Source: Escherichia phage vB_VIPECOOM01
Sequence record: OQ721909
Strand: one strand, 5' to 3'
DNA: 64,000 bases
Below, piece after piece: positions 6,628 to 42,742 of this stretch; position 1 is the stretch's first letter; each line of letters opens with the position of its first letter. The notes beneath the pieces are model-generated. The model was not told the origin of the DNA. It saw nothing but the letters and a program-made list of their open reading frames with translations, and made no database searches. The position numbers and the translations under genes are program-made.

Positions 6628-6844
6628 TGTAAACTGATTTTTTCAACTTTCTTACTTCACCACGTAATTGACGATTTAGCTCATCTTTAACTTCTGAATC
6701 AATACCTTTCATTCTACGCCATTTATCTGAGCGAAAAATGTTTTCAACCATATCTTTATGACTTACACCATCAGGAGCTTTACGCTTTCCGAAATAGTCA
6801 TAATCACGAACTTTCAAGTCTTTACGACGATACGTTTTACCCAT
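6551..6844 (-). CDS. hypothetical basic protein
   Basis: ORF-track ORF 6551..6889 trimmed to internal Met (MGKTYRRKD) to avoid overlap. Confidence 0.45.
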   Translation of the reverse strand: MGKTYRRKDLKVRDYDYFGKRKAPDGVSHKDMVENIFRSDKWRRMKGIDSEVKDELNRQLRGEVRKLKKSVYIDDDFDYNTSQRVAKRKSNECYRYS

Positions 6845-7043
6845 GGAGTTTAATTTCCTTAGCAACTGAACTAAATACAGCACGATCACAAATCATCTGT
6901 TTATGTAACTTGAGTATAAGATAATAAACTTCAAAACCGTTTACATAAGTAACGCGAACAACATTACCATTAATAAAATAATATTGTCCCTTTTTAATTT
7001 CTTTATCAACCACAACCATATCAATTCCTCGAAGGCAATTCAT
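6837..7043 (-). CDS. hypothetical protein
   Basis: 68 aa ORF directly downstream of an early promoter. Confidence 0.5.
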   Translation of the reverse strand: MNCLRGIDMVVVDKEIKKGQYYFINGNVVRVTYVNGFEVYYLILKLHKQMICDRAVFSSVAKEIKLHG

Positions 7044-7047
7044 ATGT

Positions 7048-7100
7048 TAATAATACCACAGTTTAAACTTCTTGTAAACAACTTTGTGAAAATTATTTTA
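7048..7100 (-). promoter_or_regulatory. early promoter (sigma70-type, T4 early class)
   Basis: On minus strand: AT-rich UP element, GTTTAC -35, TGGTATTAT extended -10. Confidence 0.6.
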
Positions 7101-7151
7101 GGGAATGATAAGAAGTGAATGATAGTTAGAATGGTAATATACAGAATGTGA

Positions 7152-7176
7152 GAAAGAAAGGCCCAGAGGGCCCGTC
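7152..7176 (-). terminator. rho-independent terminator downstream of nrdH
   Basis: GGGCCCTCTGGGCC hairpin followed by TTTCTTTCT on minus strand. Confidence 0.55.
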
Positions 7177-7485
7177 TTAGTCTTCTATGATATCTCTATC
7201 ATATCCAAGTGAAATGAGAGTTTCTTTGAAGTGTTTGATGTTCTTTTGTCTAGAATCATTGATGAAAATGACTGGATAACGAATGTTAAGAGATGTGAAT
7301 CCAGCTCGTTTAGCAAGAGATACAATCAGTGGACGATCATACTCAATCTTACCATTATTTGTAAGAACTTTATAGAAAGTAAAAGGAGCATTGAGCTCCT
7401 TTAGAAGTTTTGTAACTGATTGACATCCAGGACAACGACCTACTTCATCTGGAATTCCATAGACTTCAATCTTGTTTTGTTTCAC
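7177..7485 (-). CDS. nrdH: Glutaredoxin-like protein NrdH
   Basis: 102 aa thioredoxin-fold protein with CPGC redox motif, adjacent to nrdG/nrdD. Confidence 0.8.
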   Translation of the reverse strand: MKQNKIEVYGIPDEVGRCPGCQSVTKLLKELNAPFTFYKVLTNNGKIEYDRPLIVSLAKRAGFTSLNIRYPVIFINDSRQKNIKHFKETLISLGYDRDIIED

Positions 7486-7487
7486 AA

Positions 7488-7724
7488 CTATTCCTTACTA
7501 AGAGCAGCATTCAGCTTGTTAGTAATTTTATCCAGACGCTCATTGAACTCGCTAGAAGACAGTCCTTTTTCTGGAGAAATCAAACTAATCACGAAAAATA
7601 TAGCAATAAAAGGAATAAGAAAAATAGCTCCAACTGCCATAAACAAAAAGAATGTTACGGTTGTAAGAAAATCAGCTAAACCTTTACGAAATTTATACAT
7701 ATTTACCCTTAATTGATTAACCAA
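7488..7724 (-). CDS. hypothetical membrane protein
   Basis: 78 aa, one long hydrophobic segment. Confidence 0.55.
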   Translation of the reverse strand: MVNQLRVNMYKFRKGLADFLTTVTFFLFMAVGAIFLIPFIAIFFVISLISPEKGLSSSEFNERLDKITNKLNAALSKE

Positions 7725-17847: not shown

Positions 17848-17871
17848 TTTCTGTTCCTCCGTAGTTGATAG

Positions 17872-17905
17872 GGTAATAATACCACAGAGGAACAGTCTTG
17901 TAAAC
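17872..17905 (-). promoter_or_regulatory. early promoter
   Basis: GTTTAC -35 and TGGTATTATTACC -10 on minus strand. Confidence 0.6.
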
Positions 17906-17907
17906 CA

Positions 17908-18213
17908 CTAAAAGAAACTTCTTTCACAATTTTTTCCACTGAACCATGCGCTTACCGCTTTCTTAGTCTCGGGAGCAGTGTGGTCCATAAACCATTCAAA
18001 GGCAGCCTTTTTATGATTCTGAAGGGCTTCTCGGGCTTTAATCTGCTCACGGTCTATTAACACTAACATATGAGCCTTTCTTGTCACCATGGGCTTCTTA
18101 TGATTTTTTGAATACTCCCAGTCATTTGTCCATCGCATTGTCGTTGCGAATTGAAATACTGCTTCTTTAATTTTAGTTTCGTAAATTTCACGAGCCTTTG
18201 AGTATAACATCAC
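17908..18213 (-). CDS. hypothetical protein
   Basis: 101 aa ORF. Confidence 0.5.
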   Translation of the reverse strand: MMLYSKAREIYETKIKEAVFQFATTMRWTNDWEYSKNHKKPMVTRKAHMLVLIDREQIKAREALQNHKKAAFEWFMDHTAPETKKAVSAWFSGKNCERSFF

Positions 18214-19977: not shown

Positions 19978-20009
19978 TTTATTCTCCAAATCCGTATCAG
20001 TTGATAGTT

Positions 20010-20060
20010 GTATAGTACCATAAAGCTTTATGCTTGTAAACTGTTTTGTGAAAAAATTTT
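20010..20060 (-). promoter_or_regulatory. early promoter
   Basis: UP element, GTTTAC -35, TGGTACTATAC -10 on minus strand. Confidence 0.6.
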
Positions 20061-20065
20061 GAAAT

Positions 20066-28796: not shown

Positions 28797-29010
28797 ATTT
28801 TACTTCCTCACCAGTACCCAAATCATATTCAACTAAACGAATAGGTTCATGAATGCCATATCCCTGAACAGAAATTTCTGTCGTAGGATAAATTCCACTA
28901 ATATCACCCATGTTCCATGCTTCATTAAATTGCTGTTCGCCTGAATTACTAAACCACTCGGCGAAAGCATTTAGCACATCTTTAGAACCTTCAATAATTA
29001 TCTTTGCCAT
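28789..29010 (-). CDS. hypothetical protein
   Basis: 73 aa ORF. Confidence 0.5.
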   Translation of the reverse strand: MAKIIIEGSKDVLNAFAEWFSNSGEQQFNEAWNMGDISGIYPTTEISVQGYGIHEPIRLVEYDLGTGEEVKYD

Positions 29011-29378
29011 TACAAACTCTCAGTAAAGGTACGAGCGATAACGTCGCGCTGCTGTTCCGGAGTCAGAGAGTTAAAGCGAACTGCATAACCGGATACACGG
29101 ATGGTCAGCTGCGGATATTTTTCCGGATGCTTAACTGCATCTTTCAGAGTTTCACGACGCAGAACGTTAACGTTCAGGTGTTGACCACCTTCAATTTTAA
29201 CTGTAGGTTGTGTTTCAATTTCAATTTCAATTTCACGAGCATGCAAACCATAGAAAATTTCTGGGTCTACAAAAGAGTCCTCTTTAAAAGTTTTAGAGAC
29301 AATAATTCGTACTTGAATACCATCTTCAAAATAAATAGTACCTTTATGTGTGCCTTCAAGAATTTGATATGCTTTCAT
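29010..29378 (-). CDS. Autonomous glycyl-radical cofactor (GrcA/YfiD-like)
   Basis: 122 aa; C-terminus [15 protein letters not shown]...[29 protein letters not shown] is the glycyl-radical domain of GrcA/PFL; host-like GC-rich codon usage. Confidence 0.88.
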
Positions 29379-29714: not shown

Positions 29715-30253
29715 TGCATTCCAATTACGAAAAACTGTGGACGAGTAATACCACCAATGCAACATTTACTATTGCAGCAGTGTTGCACAGTTTCAATATG
29801 AATATCGTAAATTTTATCCATATCAGGAGATTTAACAGGCTCATCGATTATATACAAAATCCGCGAAAGCGATAAACCTCTGAACTTGCTACCTCTATTA
29901 CCAACAAAACTACGGACAGAATCAGTAAATAAACGGAATCGAATATCATCATTAGAATAGCGTGAAAATTCTTTTTTAATGTGGCCCGCAGAAATTTTAG
30001 CGTAAGCTGAAGTATTAGAAAGAACAATAACTGTTCCACCGTCATACAACCAATTAGCGGCAAAATTAGTTACTGCAGTTGATTTACCGGATTGACGTCC
30101 ACCATCTAGTCGAAGTGTGCAGTATTCTTTAAATAAATGTGGCGAATCAGGTACATAAAATCCACTATTACAAATTTCTTCTACTCTAGCATCAGAATGG
30201 TGTGTAAAAGCATTCATCAGGGATAGATAAGGACCAGTTAAAAATGTTCTCAT
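29711..30253 (-). CDS. hypothetical P-loop NTPase
   Basis: Walker A GGRQSGKST and Walker-B-like ILYIIDE; trimmed to MRTFLTG Met with GAGAGAAT RBS. Confidence 0.55.
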   Translation of the reverse strand: MRTFLTGPYLSLMNAFTHHSDARVEEICNSGFYVPDSPHLFKEYCTLRLDGGRQSGKSTAVTNFAANWLYDGGTVIVLSNTSAYAKISAGHIKKEFSRYSNDDIRFRLFTDSVRSFVGNRGSKFRGLSLSRILYIIDEPVKSPDMDKIYDIHIETVQHCCNSKCCIGGITRPQFFVIGMQ

Positions 30254-30330
30254 TTTATTCTCTCTAAATTTGGGCCATTCCATGGCGCATGAATTGTCCA
30301 TTTCTGTATTTACCCATTACCGCACTTGGG
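30254..30330. repeat. repeated structured intergenic element, copy A
   Basis: ~75% identical to 31205-31283 over ~70 bp. Confidence 0.5.
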
Positions 30331-30398
30331 CTCGACCTTATTACAGGTTGGCGGGAATCCCTCATAGAATCATGAGGTCCAGGTTATTCCCATGTTAT

Positions 30399-30815
30399 TT
30401 AAATGTAAATATTTTTGCCGTAATACTTATACCAGTGCGGCTTCATTAAAATTTTTTCATCGAGTCGTTGTTGACTCAACCTAATAGCTGATTTGCATGG
30501 ATTATAATCATTTTTCCATTCTGCTGGAATATCGCTGATGTCAGGAACTTCAGTATCTTTTATACTAAACCCACGTTTTAAGCATTCCATTATAATGTCT
30601 GATTGACGCTTTCGCAAAAATTCTAACTTGTCGTAAAAGAACGTAACATGACCAGAACCTAAAATAAACTCGGAAGATATTTTAAAATCTTTAACCCGCT
30701 TACCATTTGCCACATGTTTACGAACTATACCAAAAACACGTGGCAATTCACGGTATTCTGCGATTAAATGCTGATCAGCAAGTTCAGATACTAAAGTCAA
30801 ATTAATACGAGTCAT
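30399..30815 (-). CDS. denV: Endonuclease V (pyrimidine-dimer DNA glycosylase)
   Basis: 138 aa; N-terminal [17 protein letters not shown] matches recalled T4 endo V. Confidence 0.93.
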
Positions 30816-30837
30816 TTTACCTCTCCAAGTAATTATG

Positions 30838-30870
30838 AATATACTATCACAATTCTAGGAGAAAGTAAAC
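30838..30870 (-). promoter_or_regulatory. early promoter upstream of denV
   Basis: GTTTAC -35, TGTGATAGTATAT -10 on minus strand. Confidence 0.6.
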
Positions 30871-30872
30871 TG

Positions 30873-31175
30873 TTATTTACCTTTAATTACTTTAGCTGCT
30901 TCGATAGCCGCTTGCTGAAGGTCATCCATAGACATACCGAATTTAGAAGCAAAGTTATCAATTTTCTTTTCGACAGCATTCAAAGGCTTGGCCTGTTTAC
31001 CTTCATTAGCGCCAGGAAGAGCGAGAATACGCTCTTTGTCAATATAAAGGCTTACAAGTTTCTTACGGTCTTTATCGGACAAATCATGAAATGAATGGGC
31101 CTTTTTATTTATAGCGGCTTCTAATTTACCTGCACTCACTCGCGCTTCAGCAATAAATTCTTGATATGTTTTCAT
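30873..31175 (-). CDS. ipII: Internal protein II (capsid-packaged)
   Basis: 100 aa; N-terminal MKTYQEFIAEA capsid-targeting leader. Confidence 0.85.
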   Translation of the reverse strand: MKTYQEFIAEARVSAGKLEAAINKKAHSFHDLSDKDRKKLVSLYIDKERILALPGANEGKQAKPLNAVEKKIDNFASKFGMSMDDLQQAAIEAAKVIKGK

Positions 31176-31204
31176 ATGTTTCCTTTAAATGTAAATAGTT
31201 TTAT

Positions 31205-31283
31205 TCTTTAAGTTTGGGACAATTCGCACGCATGAATTGTCCGTTTCTATATTTATCTATTACCGGGTTCGAACTCGGCTTTA
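31205..31283. repeat. repeated structured intergenic element, copy B
   Basis: Contains 9-bp perfect stem GGACAATTC/GAATTGTCC; paralogous to 30254-30330. Confidence 0.5.
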
Positions 31284-31862
31284 TTAAGAATTACCACGAG
31301 CTGCATTAGCAACGGCGTAAGCGTACTGAACATTAGCGTCTTTAAACGTACCTTTAGAGGTATCTAGTTCTGCCTTAAAGCCGCCTTTAGTCATAACATC
31401 GGCAAATTCTTTACGGAAAGCCATTGCATCAAGGCTTCTCCATGACGATTTGTGCTTGGCGAATTCAAGACCAGCGTAGTTGACAGCCTTAGCTAATTTA
31501 TTATCAATAACCCATTTACCTGCTTTAGGCACAAATACCGGGCCTTTCTGTTTAGAGAATAGTTTTAAATTCCAGCGACGAAGGTCACCGTCAGCTTTAA
31601 CAAAAGCTGCGTCCAAGTTACTAGCAACAACATCTTGAATATGGCCAAATTTAAGCCCATCAACTTCAATATTTAGATCGGTACGCCAGCGAAGTCCTTC
31701 CCAAGCGAAAGCTTTAAAGTCAGAAGCCTTTGTAGCTAAATACCGTTCAATAGTAGCTGTTTTAGGGTCAAAGCCGTTTCCTCGATAAGTCCACTCATCT
31801 TTATTAATTCCTTTGGCCTTTTCCACAGAAGCTTCAGCGATAAATTCTTTATACGTTTTCAT
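31284..31862 (-). CDS. ipIII: Internal protein III (capsid-packaged)
   Basis: 192 aa; N-terminal MKTYKEFIAEA leader. Confidence 0.85.
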   Translation of the reverse strand: MKTYKEFIAEASVEKAKGINKDEWTYRGNGFDPKTATIERYLATKASDFKAFAWEGLRWRTDLNIEVDGLKFGHIQDVVASNLDAAFVKADGDLRRWNLKLFSKQKGPVFVPKAGKWVIDNKLAKAVNYAGLEFAKHKSSWRSLDAMAFRKEFADVMTKGGFKAELDTSKGTFKDANVQYAYAVANAARGNS

Positions 31863-31895
31863 GTGTTTCCTTTAAATATTTTAATTAGTAACTGT

Positions 31896-31930
31896 GAATA
31901 TACTATCACAGTTCTAGAAGAAAGTAAACA
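31896..31930 (-). promoter_or_regulatory. early promoter upstream of ipIII
   Basis: GTTTAC -35, TGTGATAGTATAT -10; near-duplicate of denV promoter. Confidence 0.6.
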
Positions 31931-31943
31931 ACTTTATAGATTT

Positions 31944-32474
<531 letters not shown>

Positions 32475-35974: not shown

Positions 35975-36292
35975 TTATTTCATATTATTGAAATATTCTT
36001 CTGCGATTTCGTCGTTATCATGGTAAACTTTAGAAGACAGTTTAACATAACCTTCTGCTGTGAACATGTTAATCACAACTTTTACAGTATACCATTGACC
36101 ATCTTCATTACCCATTACTGCGTAAGTTTCAAACATCGGATGGTCAGGACCGATAACTTTAATATCATTCACTGTACGACCGAAATCTTCTGAAACGCAT
36201 TTCATAAAGAAGTTGAACAGTTCGCCGTAATTATCCATTTTATTCTCCAAGTTGTTTTTCTGTATCAGTAGTTGATAGTTGTATAGTACCAT
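35975..36292 (-). CDS. hypothetical protein
   Basis: 105 aa ORF directly downstream of early promoter. Confidence 0.55.
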   Translation of the reverse strand: MVLYNYQLLIQKNNLENKMDNYGELFNFFMKCVSEDFGRTVNDIKVIGPDHPMFETYAVMGNEDGQWYTVKVVINMFTAEGYVKLSSKVYHDNDEIAEEYFNNMK

Positions 36293-36330
36293 GGAAGAAC
36301 TGGGATGTAAACAGTTTTGTGAAAAAATTT
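36280..36330 (-). promoter_or_regulatory. early promoter
   Basis: UP element, GTTTAC -35, TGGTACTATAC -10 on minus strand. Confidence 0.6.
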
Positions 36331-36444
36331 TTAAAAAGTTTTAGGGAATTCTAGGGAGGGAAGGGGCAATTAAAGGATAGGATAATATATTATAAAGGGT
36401 AGAAACTAAATGATGCCTAGAGAGGTCCAGAAAGGCCTAGATGC

Positions 36445-36478: not shown

Positions 36479-37042
36479 TTATTTATCTAGTTTAGTTATT
36501 ATAGCTTCTGCGGCAGCTTTTAGCTTAGATGCGGTGTTAATACGATTTTTAATTTCAGTATACGCATCGCCAAGAACATCAAGGCTATCAGAATAAACAC
36601 TTACACTATTGCGTTCGCTATTTGAAATAGAACCTTTAGTTTTACGATCAAAATCGGTGTACACGTCTTGAAGATCACGGGCTGCCTTCTTTGCATCATC
36701 CAATGCGTCAAGAGCTTTATTCAAAGCATTAACGTATTTTTTAGTGTCGAACATATTCTTAGAAATTTTAACAGGTGCGCGTTCAGGAGTAGCTAATGCA
36801 GATTTAGGAACCTGAGCGCCAGATGCCAATTTCTTAGAAATTTTGAAAAACGCTTTATTGAATTTATTTTCTTGACTCATCGTAAAAGAACTATTATCGA
36901 TGTTGTACATTTCAATAGCTTTAGCTTTCCACTTAAGAAAATCGCCGCGGTCTTTTGGGTCCAAGTGGAAGAATACTTTAGTAAGATCTGCTTCAGATGG
37001 TAATTTTGCTGCTTCGGTTAAAAATTCGGCATAGGTTTTCAT
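36479..37042 (-). CDS. putative capsid-targeted internal protein (CTS leader, 187 aa)
   Basis: N-terminal MKTYAEFLTEA matches internal-protein leader with L-x-E cleavage site; flanked by terminator hairpins. Confidence 0.6.
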   Translation of the reverse strand: MKTYAEFLTEAAKLPSEADLTKVFFHLDPKDRGDFLKWKAKAIEMYNIDNSSFTMSQENKFNKAFFKISKKLASGAQVPKSALATPERAPVKISKNMFDTKKYVNALNKALDALDDAKKAARDLQDVYTDFDRKTKGSISNSERNSVSVYSDSLDVLGDAYTEIKNRINTASKLKAAAEAIITKLDK

Positions 37043-37131
37043 TTAAAATCCTTGAAATGATTTATCAGTTGGTTATTAATTATTTATTACTTTGCTATTA
37101 TCTGCAGCAGCATTCTCTATGTGATTCAAAC

Positions 37132-37160
37132 TAAAAAGCCCCGACCGAAAGGTCGGGGCT
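37132..37160 (-). terminator. rho-independent terminator
   Basis: AGCCCCGACC-TTTC-GGTCGGGGCT hairpin followed by TTTTT on minus strand. Confidence 0.75.
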
Positions 37161-37167
37161 AAGAATG

Positions 37168-37680: not shown

Positions 37681-37688
37681 TATTTATA
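37681..37688 (-). promoter_or_regulatory. late promoter (TATAAATA) upstream of CTS-protein gene
   Basis: Plus-strand TATTTATA; gene start at 37641. Confidence 0.6.
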
Positions 37689-37689
37689 C

Positions 37690-37718
37690 TAAAAAGCCCC
37701 AACCTTTCGGTCGGGGCT
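37690..37718 (-). terminator. rho-independent terminator ending the tRNA / small-RNA transcript
   Basis: Near-duplicate of the 37132-37160 hairpin followed by TTTTT on minus strand. Confidence 0.7.
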
Positions 37719-37719
37719 A

Positions 37720-38029
37720 AGCCTTGCGGCAACCTTGTCGGGGTTCCACCTGCTAAGGCAAGTGTTTGTACGAAACGCCGGGATTCGAACCCGGTTATTA
37801 AGCAGTTGACGCTACTCAATATTTTTAAAAGGCCATATCTCGACCATATCCGAACGTTCCGTCAAAAACGCTACTCGGCTTACGGCAAAGATATTTCCTC
37901 GAATCGATAATTCGGTGCGCCGTTTCTGCTGTGATGTAAGGGGATATTAACAAATCGTAAAGATTTATTAAGACCAGTCCTTACGCAGGGAACATCAGTC
38001 CGACGACTTACCGGTAGCGACCCGGTTTC
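37720..38029 (-). ncRNA. candidate small stable RNA(s) downstream of tRNA cluster (T4 RNA C/D equivalent)
   Basis: ~310 nt non-coding stretch between 116-aa ORF and terminator; contains tRNA-like T-arm ACCGGGTTCGAATCCCGG. Confidence 0.3.
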
Positions 38030-38396: not shown

Positions 38397-38472
38397 TGGT
38401 CGAGGCAGTAGGGATCGAACCTACGACCTAGGACTTAGAAGGTCCTTGCTCTTCCTTCTGAGCTATGCCCCG
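38397..38472 (-). tRNA. tRNA-Arg (anticodon TCT)
   Basis: Cloverleaf read by hand: anticodon loop CTTCTAA, T-arm GGTTCGATCC, CCA encoded. Confidence 0.85.
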
Positions 38473-38476
38473 TAAT

Positions 38477-38552
38477 TGGGGTGACCGATGGGAGTCGAAC
38501 CCATGACTACGAGAATCACAATCTCGAGTTCTACCAACTGAACTACGGCCAC
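38477..38552 (-). tRNA. tRNA-His (anticodon GTG), no encoded G-1
   Basis: Anticodon loop TTGTGAT; discriminator C then CCA; closely resembles E. coli tRNA-His body. Confidence 0.75.
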
Positions 38553-38636
38553 ATTAATACCTACTCCAACAATCAAGATGTCTTCACACGAAATTAAGAG
38601 AAGAGTGATCAGTTCAACCCCGATAATCGCGTCAAG

Positions 38637-38652
38637 TAGATATTAATGTGAC
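38637..38652. repeat. perfect 16-bp palindrome TGTGACAATTGTCACA in tRNA spacer
   Basis: Self-complementary; matches CRP-type TGTGA-N6-TCACA half-site arrangement. Confidence 0.5.
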
Positions 38653-38656
38653 AATT

Positions 38657-38731
38657 GTCACAAATTTGGCGGACGTGATAGGATTCGAACCTATAACCAA
38701 TCGCTTAACAGGCGATCGCTCTGCCATTGAG
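38657..38731 (-). tRNA. tRNA-Asn (anticodon GTT)
   Basis: Anticodon loop CTGTTAA; T-arm GGTTCGAATCC; CCA encoded. Confidence 0.8.
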
Positions 38732-38735
38732 CTAC

Positions 38736-38822
38736 ACATCCAAATTGGTGGGGAGTGATGGAGTCGAACCACCCGAGTCGCAATGACAATGGATTTACAG
38801 TCCACACCGCTACCTCTACGGG
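38736..38822 (-). tRNA. tRNA-Tyr (anticodon GTA), long variable arm
   Basis: 87 nt; anticodon loop CTGTAAA; perfect 7-bp acceptor stem; CCA encoded. Confidence 0.8.
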
Positions 38823-38835
38823 ATAACTCCCCTTA

Positions 38836-38910
38836 ATTCTTAATTTGGTGGCCCTGGGTGGAATTGAACCACCATCTGGCGATTATGAGTCGCTTGCTTG
38901 AACCTTCCAG
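38836..38910 (-). tRNA. tRNA-Ile2 or Met (anticodon CAT)
   Basis: Anticodon arm GCGACTCATAATCGC as in E. coli tRNA-Ile2; CCA encoded. Confidence 0.75.
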
Positions 38911-38929
38911 CTACAGGGCCAAATTTTTC

Positions 38930-39412
38930 TTATTTTATGTAATATTTATTTAAAAACTTTCTAGCTTGAGTATGGCTAACATTTATAGCGTTTGCATAAT
39001 TTTTAATAAAACCTCGTTCATCCATATTAAAATTTTCTAATATTTTTAATCGTCTAATTATCTCATCTTGGCTTAAGGTACTTGCATTATTTTTAGAAAT
39101 TTTTTCTAAAGACTGCACTGAGTGTTTTCGACCATTAAAATTAAAATTTTTAGGTTTTGGAGGAAATCTATCATTTAGTCTCGCATCTTTTGTATTTTGA
39201 TTATTAGTTGCGCAATATATGTTATTTAATGAGTATGGTCCTTTATCACCAAAACGACACATACAGTATTCATGACCCTTTCTTCCACGCTTATCATAAT
39301 TTCCCGTTGATTTCCACCAATTCAACCACTCATCAAAAGTTAAATTCCATTCAATGTTTCTACGTATAGCAGAATTCCGCTGAGAAATATATTTTGCATA
39401 ATCTTCTTTCAT
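38930..39412 (-). CDS. putative HNH-like (His-Me finger) endonuclease inserted between tRNA subclusters
   Basis: 160 aa basic protein; HEYCMC ... NNIYCATNNQN spacing suggestive of HNH; position equivalent to T4 segB. Confidence 0.4.
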   Translation of the reverse strand: MKEDYAKYISQRNSAIRRNIEWNLTFDEWLNWWKSTGNYDKRGRKGHEYCMCRFGDKGPYSLNNIYCATNNQNTKDARLNDRFPPKPKNFNFNGRKHSVQSLEKISKNNASTLSQDEIIRRLKILENFNMDERGFIKNYANAINVSHTQARKFLNKYYIK

Positions 39413-39459
39413 CGCAAATTTCTCTACTTATTGCATACACTAAGCTAAATCAGCAAAAC

Positions 39460-39549
39460 TGGCGGAGGCGATAGGATTTGAACCTATGAGTCGCCGGAGC
39501 GACTGCCGGTTTTCAAGACCGGTGCATTAAACCACTCTGCCACGCCTCC
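39460..39549 (-). tRNA. tRNA-Ser (anticodon TGA), long variable arm
   Basis: 90 nt; anticodon loop CTTGAAA; CCA encoded. Confidence 0.85.
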
Positions 39550-39551
39550 AG

Positions 39552-39625
39552 TCTCCGCGGCAGGATTTGAACCTGCGACATTCTGCTCCCAAAGCAGACG
39601 CTCTACCAAACTGAGCTACACGGAG
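39552..39625 (-). tRNA. tRNA-Pro (anticodon TGG), CCA not encoded
   Basis: Anticodon loop TTTGGGA; 3' end abuts tRNA-Ser (dimeric precursor arrangement). Confidence 0.8.
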
Positions 39626-39635
39626 TAAATTAAAT

Positions 39636-39709
<74 letters not shown>

Positions 39710-39714
39710 AAATT

Positions 39715-39801
39715 TGGTGCGAGAAGTGGGACTCGAACCCACAAGGAAATCATTCCGCAGCATTTTAAGTGCTGTGCCTTTACCAATTTGACCATTCTCG
39801 C
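39715..39801 (-). tRNA. tRNA-Leu (anticodon TAA), long variable arm
   Basis: 87 nt; anticodon loop CTTAAAA; CCA encoded. Confidence 0.85.
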
Positions 39802-39802
39802 G

Positions 39803-39875
39803 CTGGGAATAAAGGACTCGAACCTTTGCATCTAGCAGTCAAAGTGCTATGCCTTACCAACTTGGCTAATTCCCA
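39803..39875 (-). tRNA. tRNA-Gln (anticodon TTG), CCA not encoded
   Basis: Anticodon loop CTTTGAC; 3' end one nt from tRNA-Leu 5' end (dimeric precursor). Confidence 0.85.
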
Positions 39876-39961: not shown

Positions 39962-40486
39962 TTAAAGCAAATTAAACATTTTAACGGTCGGCAAAACAAT
40001 TTCTTCTTCTATATAAGAGTATTTAACACTCTCAACTACACGCAAAAAATCATAATCATAATACTCAGAAGCATTACCTAAAATATTAATAAGTCCTTCA
40101 AGCACTTTATTACCATTCACAAAAAATAAGTCAAATACACGTTCTTCATCTTCTTCAGATTTATTACCAAGATCAACTTCTATGCGAAAGACCTTTTTAA
40201 TGAATTCTGGATAAAGCTGGTCTGAGAACAGTCCTTCAACCAAGTATTCATAAATAAAAAGAGATTGCTCGCTGAACAAACCATTACCGCAATAGCGCTC
40301 AATTTTAGTACTAGAATATCTGCTTTTAAATTTCTTTAAAAGATACTGAAATTGTAAGATTTCATGCTCTTCTACGCCAAACAGTGTTTTAGTTTTATAG
40401 TTGTCACCATCATTTTCCCAGGTAGTGACATCAATTACGTAACCCTGCGGAATTGTAGTACCCAAACAAATATTCATTTTCACCAC
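39962..40486 (-). CDS. hypothetical protein
   Basis: 174 aa ORF. Confidence 0.55.
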   Translation of the reverse strand: MVKMNICLGTTIPQGYVIDVTTWENDGDNYKTKTLFGVEEHEILQFQYLLKKFKSRYSSTKIERYCGNGLFSEQSLFIYEYLVEGLFSDQLYPEFIKKVFRIEVDLGNKSEEDEERVFDLFFVNGNKVLEGLINILGNASEYYDYDFLRVVESVKYSYIEEEIVLPTVKMFNLL

Positions 40487-41356: not shown

Positions 41357-41380
41357 TTTATTCTCCTCAGTAGTTGATAG

Positions 41381-41414
41381 GGTAATAATATCACTACCCC
41401 ATCTAAAAGTAAAC
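41381..41414 (-). promoter_or_regulatory. early promoter
   Basis: GTTTAC -35, GTGATATTATTACC -10 on minus strand. Confidence 0.55.
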
Positions 41415-41648
41415 TTATTTTTTACGAAAAATTGATTTATTTTCTGCTGCCCATTTTTCAATAACTGCAGCAGGACCAGTAACAACAATTTTATCACCGT
41501 AATCTTCTGCGGCGAGTTGACCGAAATTATCTAATGCATCACGAAGAACTCCATGAGGCATTTCACCCATTTTATCTTTCTTGCCGGTGTAAATAAACTC
41601 AACTTTTACATCAGAAGATTCAGCGATAAACTCTTTGAAAGTTTTCAT
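41415..41648 (-). CDS. ipI: Internal protein I-like capsid-targeted protein
   Basis: 77 aa from MKTFKEFIAES leader; early promoter upstream; position matches T4 ipI. Confidence 0.6.
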   Translation of the reverse strand: MKTFKEFIAESSDVKVEFIYTGKKDKMGEMPHGVLRDALDNFGQLAAEDYGDKIVVTGPAAVIEKWAAENKSIFRKK

Positions 41649-41680
41649 TTTAGTTTCCATTCGATTGTTTTGTTTTGATA

Positions 41681-41735
41681 GGGTAATAATATCACAACTA
41701 AAACCCTATGTAAACAACTTTGTGAAATTATTTTA
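41681..41735 (-). promoter_or_regulatory. early promoter upstream of ipI-like gene
   Basis: UP element, GTTTAC -35, TGTGATATTATTACC -10. Confidence 0.6.
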
Positions 41736-41985
41736 AATCTTCTAATCGTTTCTTCATCTTAGAACCATTTTTAGCAATTTCTCCTGCATCGGAGCATAAT
41801 GCTAAAAGTGCTTTAACTTTCGTTTGGTCTCCTTTAAAAGATGAAGGATCTACTGCAGCAGCAAGTTCTTTAATACGAGAGAAAAGACGCTCAGCTTCAG
41901 CTAAAGCCATTCCAAGCTTTACTTCCATACCGTGGGAAGATTCAGTGATAGTAGTTTTTGTAGCAAACTCTTTGAAAGTTTTCAT
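41728..41985 (-). CDS. hypothetical protein with partial CTS-like leader
   Basis: 85 aa; N-terminal MKTFKEFATKTTITESS; own early promoter. Confidence 0.5.
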   Translation of the reverse strand: MKTFKEFATKTTITESSHGMEVKLGMALAEAERLFSRIKELAAAVDPSSFKGDQTKVKALLALCSDAGEIAKNGSKMKKRLEDLK

Positions 41986-42011
41986 TTTATTTTCCTAATT
42001 AATTTTGATGA

Positions 42012-42742
<731 letters not shown>

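Follow-up and report, generated by a model that had tools for sequence, protein, structure and literature searches.

Two related spacers in the ipIII–vs.8 region

The window, by which we mean the whole 64,000-nucleotide stretch of Escherichia phage vB_VIPECOOM01 (OQ721909) analysed here, contains a T4-like locus in which e, ipIII, ipII, denV and vs.8 all lie on the minus strand. Two of the spacers hold related sequences: copy B lies between the ipIII stop (31284–31286) and the ipII ATG (31173–31175), and copy A between the denV stop (30399) and the vs.8 ATG (30251–30253), so that the two flank ipII–denV as direct repeats. The genes and the copy that fills the first spacer are as follows.

31284–31862, minus strand: ipIII (internal head protein III), whose stop region, TAATAAAGC, is the left junction of copy B
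31199–31286, minus strand: copy B, truncated at the 5' end of the element and diverged in sequence, filling the ipIII–ipII spacer (alignments)
30873–31175, minus strand: ipII, which with denV forms the segment bracketed by copies B and A
30399–30815, minus strand: denV (endonuclease V), within the same bracketed segment
29711–30253, minus strand: homologue of vs.8, a P-loop protein (PHROG 1488), starting at the ATG at 30251–30253

A sequence-only reading of this DNA had pointed out the two look-alike sequences, and both they and the features described around them were found where it had placed them, each copy directly upstream of a start codon (that of the P-loop gene vs.8 and that of ipII). 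Aligning positions 30286–30343 with 31229–31286 gave 79% identity over 58 bases without gaps (family D13). A gapped local alignment of the two copies covered ~90 nt with a score of 71, compared to a mean of 15.7, a standard deviation of 2.3 and a maximum of 31 in 2,000 dinucleotide-preserving shuffles, which places the similarity far beyond chance. The low complexity of the neighbouring RBS-proximal sequence is all that speaks for a resemblance at the level expected of AT-rich intergenic DNA, an explanation that the shuffles refute and to which we assign next to no probability, given also that a homologous element is kept in hundreds of phages.

The window holds these two copies only: an alignment scan, a repeat finder and a covariance model found no third copy in the 64 kb. 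One candidate near the tRNA cluster (40274–40316) scored 8 bits and lies within a 174-codon ORF, and was set aside as a chance match. The sequence-only reading was also right that both copies fall outside the early (GTTTAC) and late (TATAAATA) promoter classes of T4. Where a late promoter would have its −10 motif, the sequence reads GGTAAATA in copy A and GATAAATA in copy B; the block at this position is not conserved, and other T4-like phages have GGTTTACA there.

A covarying three-way junction upstream of vs.8

Covariance model R1 matched copy A with 67 bits (E 8e-21), its sole significant match in the window. The matched core and the elements on either side of it are listed below in the order of the transcribed strand, with the coordinates of the stems, loops and linkers read from the sequence.

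30353–30391, minus strand: upstream nested hairpin H0, abutting P1 (MFE and centroid fold)
30308–30355, minus strand: copy A core, a three-way-junction RNA motif (covariance model R1)
30351–30349, minus strand: 5' strand of P1, CCA
30348–30335, minus strand: Ha, with stem ACCU (30348–30345), loop GUAAUA (30344–30339) and stem AGGU (30338–30335)
30334–30332, minus strand: linker CGA
30331–30322, minus strand: Hb, GCC-CAA-G(U)GC
30321–30317, minus strand: linker GGUAA
30316–30313, minus strand: 3' strand of P1, U(g)GG
30272–30311, minus strand: 3' module specific to T4-like phages (alignments)

Across the family, the core is ~45 nt long and consists of a stem, P1, with a bulged G and, inside it, two hairpins, Ha (consensus [A/G]CCU-GNRANA-AGG[U/C]) and Hb (a 3-bp stem with a small loop), together with the near-invariant linkers C-N-A and GGUAA. 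Copy A has all of these features. Covariation shows the predicted three-way junction, on the minus strand, to be the core fold of the family. The pairing cells of the alignment were paired in 89% of cases, compared to 28–43% with the partners slid, although many of the aligned sequences are related and the cell counts therefore overstate how many events were independent. None of the three inner P1 pairs was ever open, and each occurred as three to five pair types; pair 8–21 of Ha switches from A-U to G-C and pair 26–33 of Hb from C-G to U-A, with GGC/GCC and GAC/GUC as further Hb variants. The observed covariation score was reached by none of 500 shuffles. We place the fold on the gene (minus) strand because G·U pairs were confined to it. 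Ha pairs 9–20, 10–19 and 11–18 and Hb pair 25–34 were invariant and, since they never vary, rest on one covarying neighbour each.

RNAalifold by itself returned only Ha, Hb and Hd (a hairpin of the 3' module), and a consensus fold of the whole element in T4-like phages was rejected for this reason. Folding supported structure in the ipIII–ipII spacer as a whole (z = −2.2) but not in the denV–vs.8 spacer as a whole, which was no more stable than its shuffles (z = +0.5), so that the structure of copy A is visible only by covariation across phages. The nested hairpin reported beside copy A is present (H0, GGGAAU..CCUCAU-GAUUCU-AUGAGG..AUUCCC); because all genes here are on the minus strand, however, it lies 5' of copy A on the transcribed strand and does not follow it, as had been stated. 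Other phage groups have a hairpin at the position of H0 as well, with varying sequence and different apical parts. Hand-drawn pairings for H0 and the variable hairpin across T4-like phages were not convincingly supported and are not claimed here. A pseudoknot between the Ha loop and a downstream UUUAC was likewise rejected, as it was seen in few T4-like phages (GUGA with UCAC in L121) and was absent in other groups.

The 3' module comprises a variable hairpin region with a conserved AUGGAC, followed by Hd and then CC, and ends ~20 nt before the vs.8 start codon. Hd is predicted by RNAalifold as GCCA-UGGAA-UGGC (30286–30274), with one compensatory change, from GCCA/UGGC to GGCA/UGCC, in L113. 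The module stays beside vs.8 even where an IP gene is inserted upstream of it. Much of the shared core quoted by the sequence-only reading falls in the variable region, whose sequence and length differ between phages; the ~45-nt three-way junction, which is the important feature, lies mostly outside the quoted stretch.

In T4 records, the annotated vs.8 ORF (219 aa) is extended upstream across the RNA element, which lies around 64.80–64.95 kb in AF158101, and the conserved sequence could accordingly be read as coding, either for the N-terminus of Vs.8, as the T4 annotation calls it, or for a small Cys peptide (..TCNKVEPKCGKG.. / MDxxCAxEWP). Some phages do have open frames of 33–64 codons here, such as a 40-codon ORF in L010. 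Nevertheless, across 19 T4-like loci there was no consistent reading frame over the element: stops break the frame in the window, where an in-frame TAG precedes the vs.8 start, and in many other phages, the stops and frame-breaking indels differ between phages, and the indels of the variable region have lengths that do not divide by three. Whichever frame is open, it is the same nucleotides that are kept, the core occurs beside tRNA genes in unrelated phages with no common ORF, and compensatory base-pair changes are not expected from coding constraint. We regard a coding role as very improbable, and a small Cys-rich ORF or pseudogene remnant was dismissed on account of the inconsistent frames. 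The true start of vs.8 is the ATG at 30251–30253.

Copy B and the proposed shuffling of internal-protein genes

In copy B, the core is partial and starts only at the Ha loop; the variable region and a 3' module in remodelled form follow. Its 5' strands of P1 and Ha are replaced by 3' coding sequence of ipIII, Hb is rewritten and Hd is lost. The two copies had been presented as equivalent structured elements, but only copy A keeps the conserved fold; with filters off, R1 gave nothing on copy B at E ≤ 10. B-type copies (at least 90% identity) were present in 14 of 470 matching phage records. The features needed to follow the history of this spacer are given here.

31887–31929, minus strand: second PeSL-type cassette, upstream of ipIII (families D4 and D8)
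31263–31278, minus strand: imperfect palindrome CCGAGTTCGAACCCGG, at the position of Hb and its flanks in copy B
31217–31242, minus strand: within copy B, an inverted repeat of 9 bp without mismatches, GGACAATTC / GAATTGTCC, around an 8-nt loop (fold)
30828–30870, minus strand: PeSL-type cassette (GTTTAC ... stem-loop ... TATATT), upstream of denV (family D8)

The 9-bp stem of copy B exists as described by the sequence-only reading, but it is lineage-specific and not the key feature of the element. Its loop, ATGCGTGC, is turned into the reverse complement, GCACGCAT, in Shigella phage TB004, and the counterpart arms in copy A pair at 7 of 9 positions. We take the perfect hairpin to be a DNA palindrome. 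Quasipalindrome correction and loop inversion by intrastrand template switching are a general mutational mechanism, which would explain both the imperfect arms of copy A beside the perfect ones of copy B and the occurrence of the loop in both orientations in sister phages; it bears on the history of copy B only.

On the plus strand, the imperfect palindrome CCGAGTTCGAACCCGG is followed by a T-rich tail. Terminator-like sites were confined to the plus (antisense) strand of copy B, in numbers not above those of shuffles, and a scan for intrinsic terminators on the gene strand (GC-rich hairpin and U run) found none at the copies. Copy B could be functional in its own right, for instance by stabilising an mRNA 3' end or by terminating antisense transcription. 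A tRNA-like remnant, to which GAGTTCGAACCC in copy B and the GCCA behind the nested hairpin had seemed to point, was rejected: neither copy matched a tRNA or tmRNA in ARAGORN or Rfam, the TTCGAA of copy B is the rewritten Hb region and the CCA is the 5' strand of P1.

Short intergenic cassettes called PeSLs (promoter-early stem-loops) are known from T4-type phages (Arbiol et al. 2010, PMC2839356; Comeau et al. 2014, PMC4122927), with the T4/PST-type early promoter consensus TTTACW-N17-TAYWAT (PMC4122927). This consensus was absent from both copies and present in the neighbouring spacers at 30828–30870 and 31887–31929. As for the PeSL-type stem-loop, copy B has a perfect 9-bp version without a promoter and copy A imperfect arms only. 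T4 has a GTTTAC promoter and stem-loop, that is, a PeSL, where the window has copy B, and the junctions of copy B coincide with sequence common to the T4 spacer. In three other T4-like contigs, duplicated 3' modules flank an IP gene. Because copy B stands at the position of the T4 PeSL and partial copies flank IP genes, elements of the A/B type appear to serve, like PeSLs, as recombination joints. The two have in common that they are short and conserved, lie between genes of hyperplastic regions and flank small accessory genes, here the IP genes. Unlike PeSLs, the copies in the window have no promoter, the conserved part is a covarying three-way junction instead of a single stem-loop, and the motif core also occurs beside tRNA genes in phages other than T4-like ones.

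Copy A is probably a working member of an unannotated structured phage RNA family, and copy B a truncated relic of cassette shuffling. A fragment of the element may have replaced a T4-type PeSL between ipIII and ipII to give copy B, through crossovers at the microhomologies TAATAA(A/G)G and AGAATAAAA that would have cost the element its P1 and Ha 5' strands; template switching could later have made the imperfect inverted repeat perfect. An RNA element and a recombination target were both among the meanings proposed by the sequence-only reading, and both are relevant, but the copies are not two working paralogues.

Two other accounts of the pair have to be weighed against this one. The elements might be DNA-level, PeSL-like promoter or terminator cassettes, conserved for transcription and recombination and not for an RNA fold. 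The PeSL position fits such a reading (the T4 promoter and stem-loop at the site of copy B), as do the duplicated partial copies around IP gene cassettes, the P1 3' strands that in many T4-like phages run into GTTTAC, a hexamer like the T4 early −35, and the TTGACA promoter that follows the core by ~20–110 nt in ~44-kb phages and rV5. We nevertheless find it unlikely, as it leaves the covariation of P1, Ha and Hb and the strand-specific G·U pairs unexplained. Moreover, the window and T4 copies are without TTTACW-N17-TAYWAT and were negative in a promoter scan, conservation does not extend to the −10 position even in phages that have GTTTAC, and there is no terminator tail on the sense strand. 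Part of the element may still act as a promoter in the DNA where the P1 3' strand runs into GTTTAC. The other account takes both copies for functional paralogous regulatory RNAs, translational operators or stability elements that control vs.8 and ipII, which would suit their placement directly upstream of start codons, the good preservation of GGTAAT.G.TAAATA.AGAAA.GGACAATTCATGCG between A and B and the intact elements found upstream of IP genes in T4-like contigs L183 and L194. This is quite unlikely in our judgement: the part in which A and B agree best differs in sequence and length from one family member to another, and copy B, besides its rarity among phage records and the inverted hairpin loop in TB004, is without the 5' strands of P1 and Ha and without Hd, has a rewritten Hb and gives no R1 match.

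Distribution beside tRNA genes and candidate roles

The element is confined neither to these two genes nor to T4-like phages; the motif is widespread and associated with phage tRNA arrays. A 48-nt core matched 1,083 phage records, nearly always over unannotated DNA, with carriers among T4-like, rV5-like, N4-like, ~44-kb and jumbo phages of enterobacteria and vibrios. The carriers are restricted to virulent phages, where the element often sits in accessory regions, for instance beside the IP genes of T4. Metagenome loci, first taken by a degenerate pattern and mostly chance matches, were filtered with R1, which separated members (34–71 bits) from pattern-only matches (24 bits or less). In T4-like phages, the element always precedes vs.8 or an IP gene; its core is almost unchanged upstream of vs.8 and the block CCTGTAATAAGGTCGAGCCCAAGTGCGGTAA is invariant or nearly so, while the Vs.8 proteins are just 38–44% identical. 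The near-identity of the core in unrelated phage families could partly reflect recent horizontal transfer and not constraint. No core match was found in 5,426 complete E. coli genomes that would indicate a host origin.

The usual place of the motif is inside or beside a tRNA array, on the same strand. Co-oriented tRNA genes were found at 19 of 29 non-T4 loci, mostly within ~1 kb and at the nearest 38–45 nt away. In rV5, the core lies within an unannotated 290-nt gap upstream of the tRNA cluster; L323 has the order tRNA-Ser, motif, terminator; and tandem copies occur in L160/L306, L301 and L091. In rV5 and the ~44-kb phages, the motif is separated from the next gene by a promoter. No alternative terminator/anti-terminator pairing, of the kind that would serve a riboswitch or cis-regulatory 5' leader as expression platform, was found at the motif. 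In this window, where ARAGORN finds tRNAs at 38397–39875 only, the distance between motif and tRNA cluster is ~8 kb, as it is in other T4-like phages. Proximity to tRNA genes is thus a tendency of the family and not a requirement.

Searches of Rfam 15 with permissive filters matched no family to the window, T4-like, rV5-like or N4-like copies; overlaps with the motif were at chance level (E about 1–2) and far below gathering scores. The sequence string of the motif was absent from the searchable papers, which cover few subscription journals. By comparison with Rfam 15 and these papers, the structured RNA family is apparently undescribed.

Our leading guess for the motif is a factor-binding or RNA-processing module. 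Its invariant loops and linkers would be where a conserved factor, from host or phage, binds, and the motif would act in cis on polycistronic tRNA and mRNA transcripts as a processing, stability or read-through signal at transcription-unit boundaries, thereby also becoming the leader of vs.8 in T4-like phages. We put forward the specific mechanism, a cis signal for processing, stability or read-through on tRNA and mRNA transcripts, only tentatively and as doubtful in its details. Rather unlikely, though worth setting beside it, is that the core is a catalytic or decoy RNA and not a passive binding or processing signal, either a small self-cleaving ribozyme that separates tRNA-array transcripts or an anticodon-loop, tRNA or rRNA mimic that titrates a host defence nuclease or tRNA-modifying enzyme. 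Some 20 near-invariant unpaired nucleotides in a small junction, the tandem copies, the placement on the tRNA gene strand and the restriction to virulent phages, often in accessory regions, are compatible with both versions, and the start of the Ha loop (CU-GUA/GUG/GCA-A) resembles, in our own reading, anticodon loop positions 32–37. However, the Ha loop has 6 nt and not 7, no known ribozyme class in Rfam was matched and the topology is unlike that of HDV-like theta ribozymes.

Theta ribozymes, which are found beside phage tRNA genes (Kienbeck et al. 2024, PMC10879173), abut the tRNA, with a cleavage site within ~5 nt of its end; their fold is a nested double pseudoknot, in which J4/2 supplies the catalytic C (PMC10879173). 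The motif resembles them as a small conserved structured RNA in phage tRNA arrays, on the tRNA strand, but is a simple three-way junction with a GGUAA linker, at least 38 nt from the nearest tRNA. A theta ribozyme topology does not fit: only 3 nt separate Ha and Hb, leaving no room for a 6–7-bp P1 strand, and the last linker, GGUAA, has no C. The tRNA region of T4 encodes small stable RNAs, species 1 and 2 (rnaD and rnaC), which are likewise non-tRNA RNAs and are transcribed together with phage tRNA genes, as the motif would be. Unlike these, the motif of T4-like phages lies ~8 kb away, upstream of vs.8, and R1 finds no second copy in the tRNA region of the window (38.4–39.9 kb). The boxB hairpins of lambda and P22 nut sites, such as CCCU-GAAAA-AGGG, have a five-base loop. 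Ha is similar in its short stem, U-A closure and purine-rich loop whose first four bases are always of the GNRA type, but has a six-base loop, no boxA and a position inside a junction. In rV5, the gene after the motif encodes a protein with an arginine-rich N-terminus; to our knowledge, the motif carriers are virulent phages with no known N-like system. Parts of the motif presumably recall J11/12 of RNase P (GCGGUAA), the GTPase-centre loop of 23S rRNA (GUAAUA) and the U-turn of SRP Alu.

A broader reading, possible but short of an even chance, is that the motif represents a new functional class of RNA, which has its targets in the tRNA biology of the infected cell, was spread horizontally and was reused as a leader of the vs.8 operon. 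Variants of this reading include a self-cleaving or RNase-P-directing element for phage tRNA arrays and a decoy or aptamer that binds a conserved host protein, for which a tRNA-targeting defence nuclease, an enzyme that modifies tRNAs and a factor of translation or transcription are candidates; the horizontal spread would have been among unrelated virulent gamma-proteobacterial phages.

T4 is among the most closely studied genomes, yet its copy of the element is annotated as the N-terminus of a hypothetical protein, and ~1,000 other phage records carry the same bases without annotation. In practical terms, the covariance model can be used to annotate more than 1,000 genomes and the start codon of Vs.8 is corrected. 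For the shuffling of internal-protein genes, the element would provide a second kind of recombination joint, beside PeSLs. With a junction that stays near-invariant while neighbouring proteins drift to 40% identity, the RNA must, as far as such comparisons can tell, touch something important and conserved; its near-invariant core and its recurrence in tRNA arrays of unrelated phages point to a conserved partner. The identity of that partner could reveal a new step in the expression or protection of tRNAs by virulent phages, or an RNA-based counter-defence.

The repeat pair and the proposed vs.8 leader

The genes around the repeat pair are all encoded on the minus strand and follow the T4 order, and this stretch is 100% identical to Escherichia phage vB_VIPECOOM03 and ~85% identical to T4.

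Genes around the repeat pair
31944-32438, minus strand, e
31284-31862, minus strand, ipIII
30873-31175, minus strand, ipII
30399-30815, minus strand, denV
30251-30253, minus strand, start codon of the vs.8 homologue

Copy A is located in the spacer between denV and vs.8, preceded on the transcribed strand by a nested hairpin, and its look-alike, copy B, occupies the ipIII-ipII spacer on the transcribed strand; as direct repeats, they now flank ipII-denV. The copies can be aligned across ~90 nt (58 ungapped bases, 79% identity) with a local score of 71, compared to a mean of 15.7 (sd 2.3) and a maximum of 31 in 2,000 dinucleotide-preserving shuffles. The paired ~70-bp structured elements proposed in the sequence-only reading are thus borne out as similar far beyond chance, and folding confirmed both the 9-bp stem described in copy B and the nested hairpin beside copy A. 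Searching for further copies, including with the covariance model introduced below, revealed no third one within the 64-kb window. The earlier interpretation held only in part: the object of interest is a conserved core within copy A rather than the repeat pair.

According to the T4 annotation, the copy A sequence constitutes the first 39 codons of the 219-codon Vs.8, with the annotated start falling inside the RNA element (AF158101.6, 64808-64912; window 30254-30365). In the window, this extension frame stops at a TAG eight bases ahead of the real start codon. Comparison of ~40 homologues, together with this in-frame stop, indicates that the true vs.8 start is the ATG of MRTFLTGPYL, giving a protein of ~180 aa, and the annotated N-terminal extension of T4 Vs.8 is probably untranslated. 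Among denV and vs.8 loci taken from IMG/VR, the element was directly 5' of vs.8 in ~35 of 41 T4-like contigs. No reading frame was common to the T4-like elements, in which stops and non-multiple-of-three indels vary between phages. Judged by these comparisons, copy A is non-coding and not confined to the window phage. Between denV and the element are zero to three internal protein (IP) genes, recognized by their MKTYQEF... capsid-targeting sequence, so the element moves together with vs.8 and the IP cluster and not with denV. The block CCTGTAATAAGGTCGAGCCCAAGTGCGGTAA is invariant or almost so, compared to 38-44% identity among Vs.8 proteins. A 3' module peculiar to T4-like phages consists of a variable hairpin with AUGGAC, then GCCA-AGGAA-UGGC and CCC, with one compensatory change in support of its last hairpin. 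Sequences peripheral to the core vary by phage group, and the core alone is universal.

A three-way junction in the element core

We aligned 36 distinct cores and read the fold from the alignment: a stem, P1, with one bulged base encloses hairpins Ha ([A/G]CCU-GNRANA-AGG[U/C]) and Hb (a 3-bp stem), connected by linkers C-N-A and GGUAA. Across the 36 cores, 89% of pairing cells were paired versus 28-43% when partners were slid by 1-3 columns. The inner three P1 pairs were unpaired in no core and occurred as three to five pair types each (for example, CCA/UgGG, CCCU/AgGG, CUGGU/AgCCAG, CUGGA/UgCCAG, ACACU/AgGUGU, ACUA/UgAGU, CGCA/UgGC and GCAA/UgUGU). Ha pair 8-21 switches between A-U and G-C and Hb pair 26-33 between C-G and U-A; in later-found sequences Hb also occurs as GGC/GCC and GAC/GUC. 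The covariation score was matched by 0 of 500 shuffles, with several Ha and Hb pairs never varying and many of the sequences being related; RNAalifold alone recovered Ha and Hb only. G·U pairs are present on the strand that was aligned, that of the genes, which assigns the fold to the transcript or, at minimum, to this strand. As read from the alignment, these results show a strand-specific, covarying and conserved junction in the element core.

We used the alignment to build a covariance model, which had a single significant match in the window, copy A (30308-30355, minus strand; 67 bits, E = 8e-21), and did not match copy B even when unfiltered hits of E ≤ 10 were allowed. Across fetched loci it cleanly split members (34-71 bits) from pattern-only sequences (≤24 bits).

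Copy B and internal protein cassettes

In a four-way alignment, the outer flanks of copy B corresponded to the T4 ipIII-ipII spacer (left, AATTCTTAATAAAGC; right, AATAAAA.TATTTACATTTAAAGGAAACATATG) and its interior to copy A. The left junction is within TAATAA(A/G)G, which is the ipIII stop region and also the Ha loop and 3' strand, and the right within AGAATAAAA, the vs.8 ribosome-binding region and also the ipII leader, which leaves copy B without the P1 and Ha 5' strands. It has also lost the final 3'-module hairpin, and its rewritten Hb region now reads CCGAGTTCGAACCCGG. T4 has at this position a GTTTAC promoter and stem-loop, that is, a promoter-early stem-loop (PeSL) cassette (PMC4122927). 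Of 470 matching records, only 14 contain a B-type copy (≥90% identity). The perfect 9-bp stem has imperfect counterpart arms in copy A, where just 7 of the 9 positions pair. Shigella phage TB004 (MW822011.1, ~1548-1574; window 31217-31242) has the loop GCACGCAT instead of its reverse complement, ATGCGTGC: between sister phages, the 8-nt loop is flipped and the arms are unchanged. Loop flips of this kind are typical of palindrome-mediated template switching; the copy B stem behaves as a DNA palindrome, unlike a selected RNA loop. On this evidence, copy B is a relic recording shuffling of the IP region. Separately, TB004 denV is seemingly split into two short ORFs.

In three other T4-like contigs, an IP gene separates the core and its 3' module from another, diverged 3' module, which is followed by vs.8; this is a smaller-scale version of the bracketing of ipII-denV by copies B and A. 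Both arrangements argue that element pieces recur as joints of IP-gene cassettes, a role much like that of PeSLs. The window is rich in PeSL-type cassettes (families D1, D2, D4, D6 and D8), with GTTTAC and a TATAAT-like box in or adjoining a stem-loop.

PeSL-type early promoter/stem-loop cassettes in the window
7032-7107
17858-17933
19994-20064
30828-30870
31887-31929
36265-36335
41367-41442
41668-41743
42003-42073

An IP leader and capsid-targeting N terminus (MKTYxEF...) is repeated at 31132-31190, 31819-31877, 37011-37057, 41605-41648 and 41965-41995, pointing to more IP-like genes at ~37.0 kb and 41.6-42.0 kb. Two strong hairpins of almost the same sequence (AAAAAGCCCCGACC....GGTCGGGGCT; family D15), at 37124-37163 and 37682-37721 and thus 558 bp apart, look like a duplicated bidirectional terminator. 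At the T4 vs.6 position, 29010-29378 (minus strand) encodes a 122-aa protein with a C-terminal glycine-radical domain (PF01228, E = 2e-18); it is a small, free-standing GrcA/YfiD-type glycyl-radical module.

Distribution, tRNA arrays and possible roles

Scanning metagenome contigs with a degenerate pattern yielded mostly chance matches, plus true copies in rV5-like phages (in rV5, within an unannotated 290-nt gap from ORF75 to promoter P74, before the tRNA cluster), N4-like phages, a ~44-kb group (between the endolysin gene and a promoter), one Vibrio phage and phages of unknown type. Further members, on contigs of 44-48, 70, 82-92, 137 and 360 kb, came from a second IMG/VR scan, and blastn with the 48-nt core matched 1,083 phage records, nearly always in unannotated DNA. 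These searches show that the motif is widespread among virulent phages; it matched 0 of 5,426 complete E. coli genomes. Only chance-level Rfam 15 matches (4,227 families; permissive filters, small inputs) overlapped the motif, tRNA/tmRNA prediction called nothing at either copy and the core sequence string was absent from the literature searched. The conserved core of copy A appears to be an undescribed RNA family.

Co-oriented tRNA genes were near the motif in 19 of 29 non-T4 loci, mostly within ~1 kb and at minimum 38-45 nt away. One locus (L323) runs from tRNA-Ser through a 38-nt spacer to the motif and an intrinsic terminator, and a sigma-70 promoter lies 3' of the motif in rV5 and the ~44-kb phages, showing that the motif is associated with tRNA arrays and transcription-unit boundaries. 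The window's own cluster of ten tRNA genes (38397-39875, minus strand; Arg, His, Asn, Tyr, Met / Ser, Pro, Gly, Leu, Gln), which is interrupted by a gap of 540 nt (38921-39459), contained no match to the junction model. Conserved positions in the tRNA arrays of rV5-like (L177 2501-2599, L314 1714-1812, L319 270-367) and N4-like (L216 4505-4594) loci hold genes that ARAGORN reports as tRNA-like, with anticodons of four bases (atcc, gtac). The rV5-like gene after the motif and P74 (L177 from ~1470; rV5 ORF74, L264 2828-3166) has an arginine-rich start, MADTTKKRRRRGRPLKEE..., reminiscent of RNA-binding arginine-rich motifs. On the N4-like metagenome contig L216 (relatives KpCHEMY26 and Pylas), a ~840-nt non-coding stretch beside a 12-tRNA array (6682-7525) holds the motif together with a pair of long, related hairpins; it also contains, at ~7306-7339, a tag frame (ANDDVVLMAA*) resembling that of a tmRNA. 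This stretch, which may be a phage tmRNA-like gene, scored 33.7 bits against Rfam tmRNA_permuted (gathering score 47) and received no ARAGORN tmRNA call. The HDV-like theta ribozyme, the known tRNA-adjacent phage ribozyme, misfits the motif in topology, linker sequence and spacing.

The invariant unpaired bases (GNRANA, C-N-A and GGUAA) probably make up a surface for binding or catalysis. The most likely reading, which we hold only tentatively, is that the module marks polycistronic transcripts for a conserved factor, which would process, protect or read through them, and that T4-like phages would have co-opted it as the leader of vs.8. As alternatives to this reading, the core could act as a ribozyme of a new type, lure away a host enzyme directed at tRNA or serve partly as a promoter cassette at the DNA level.
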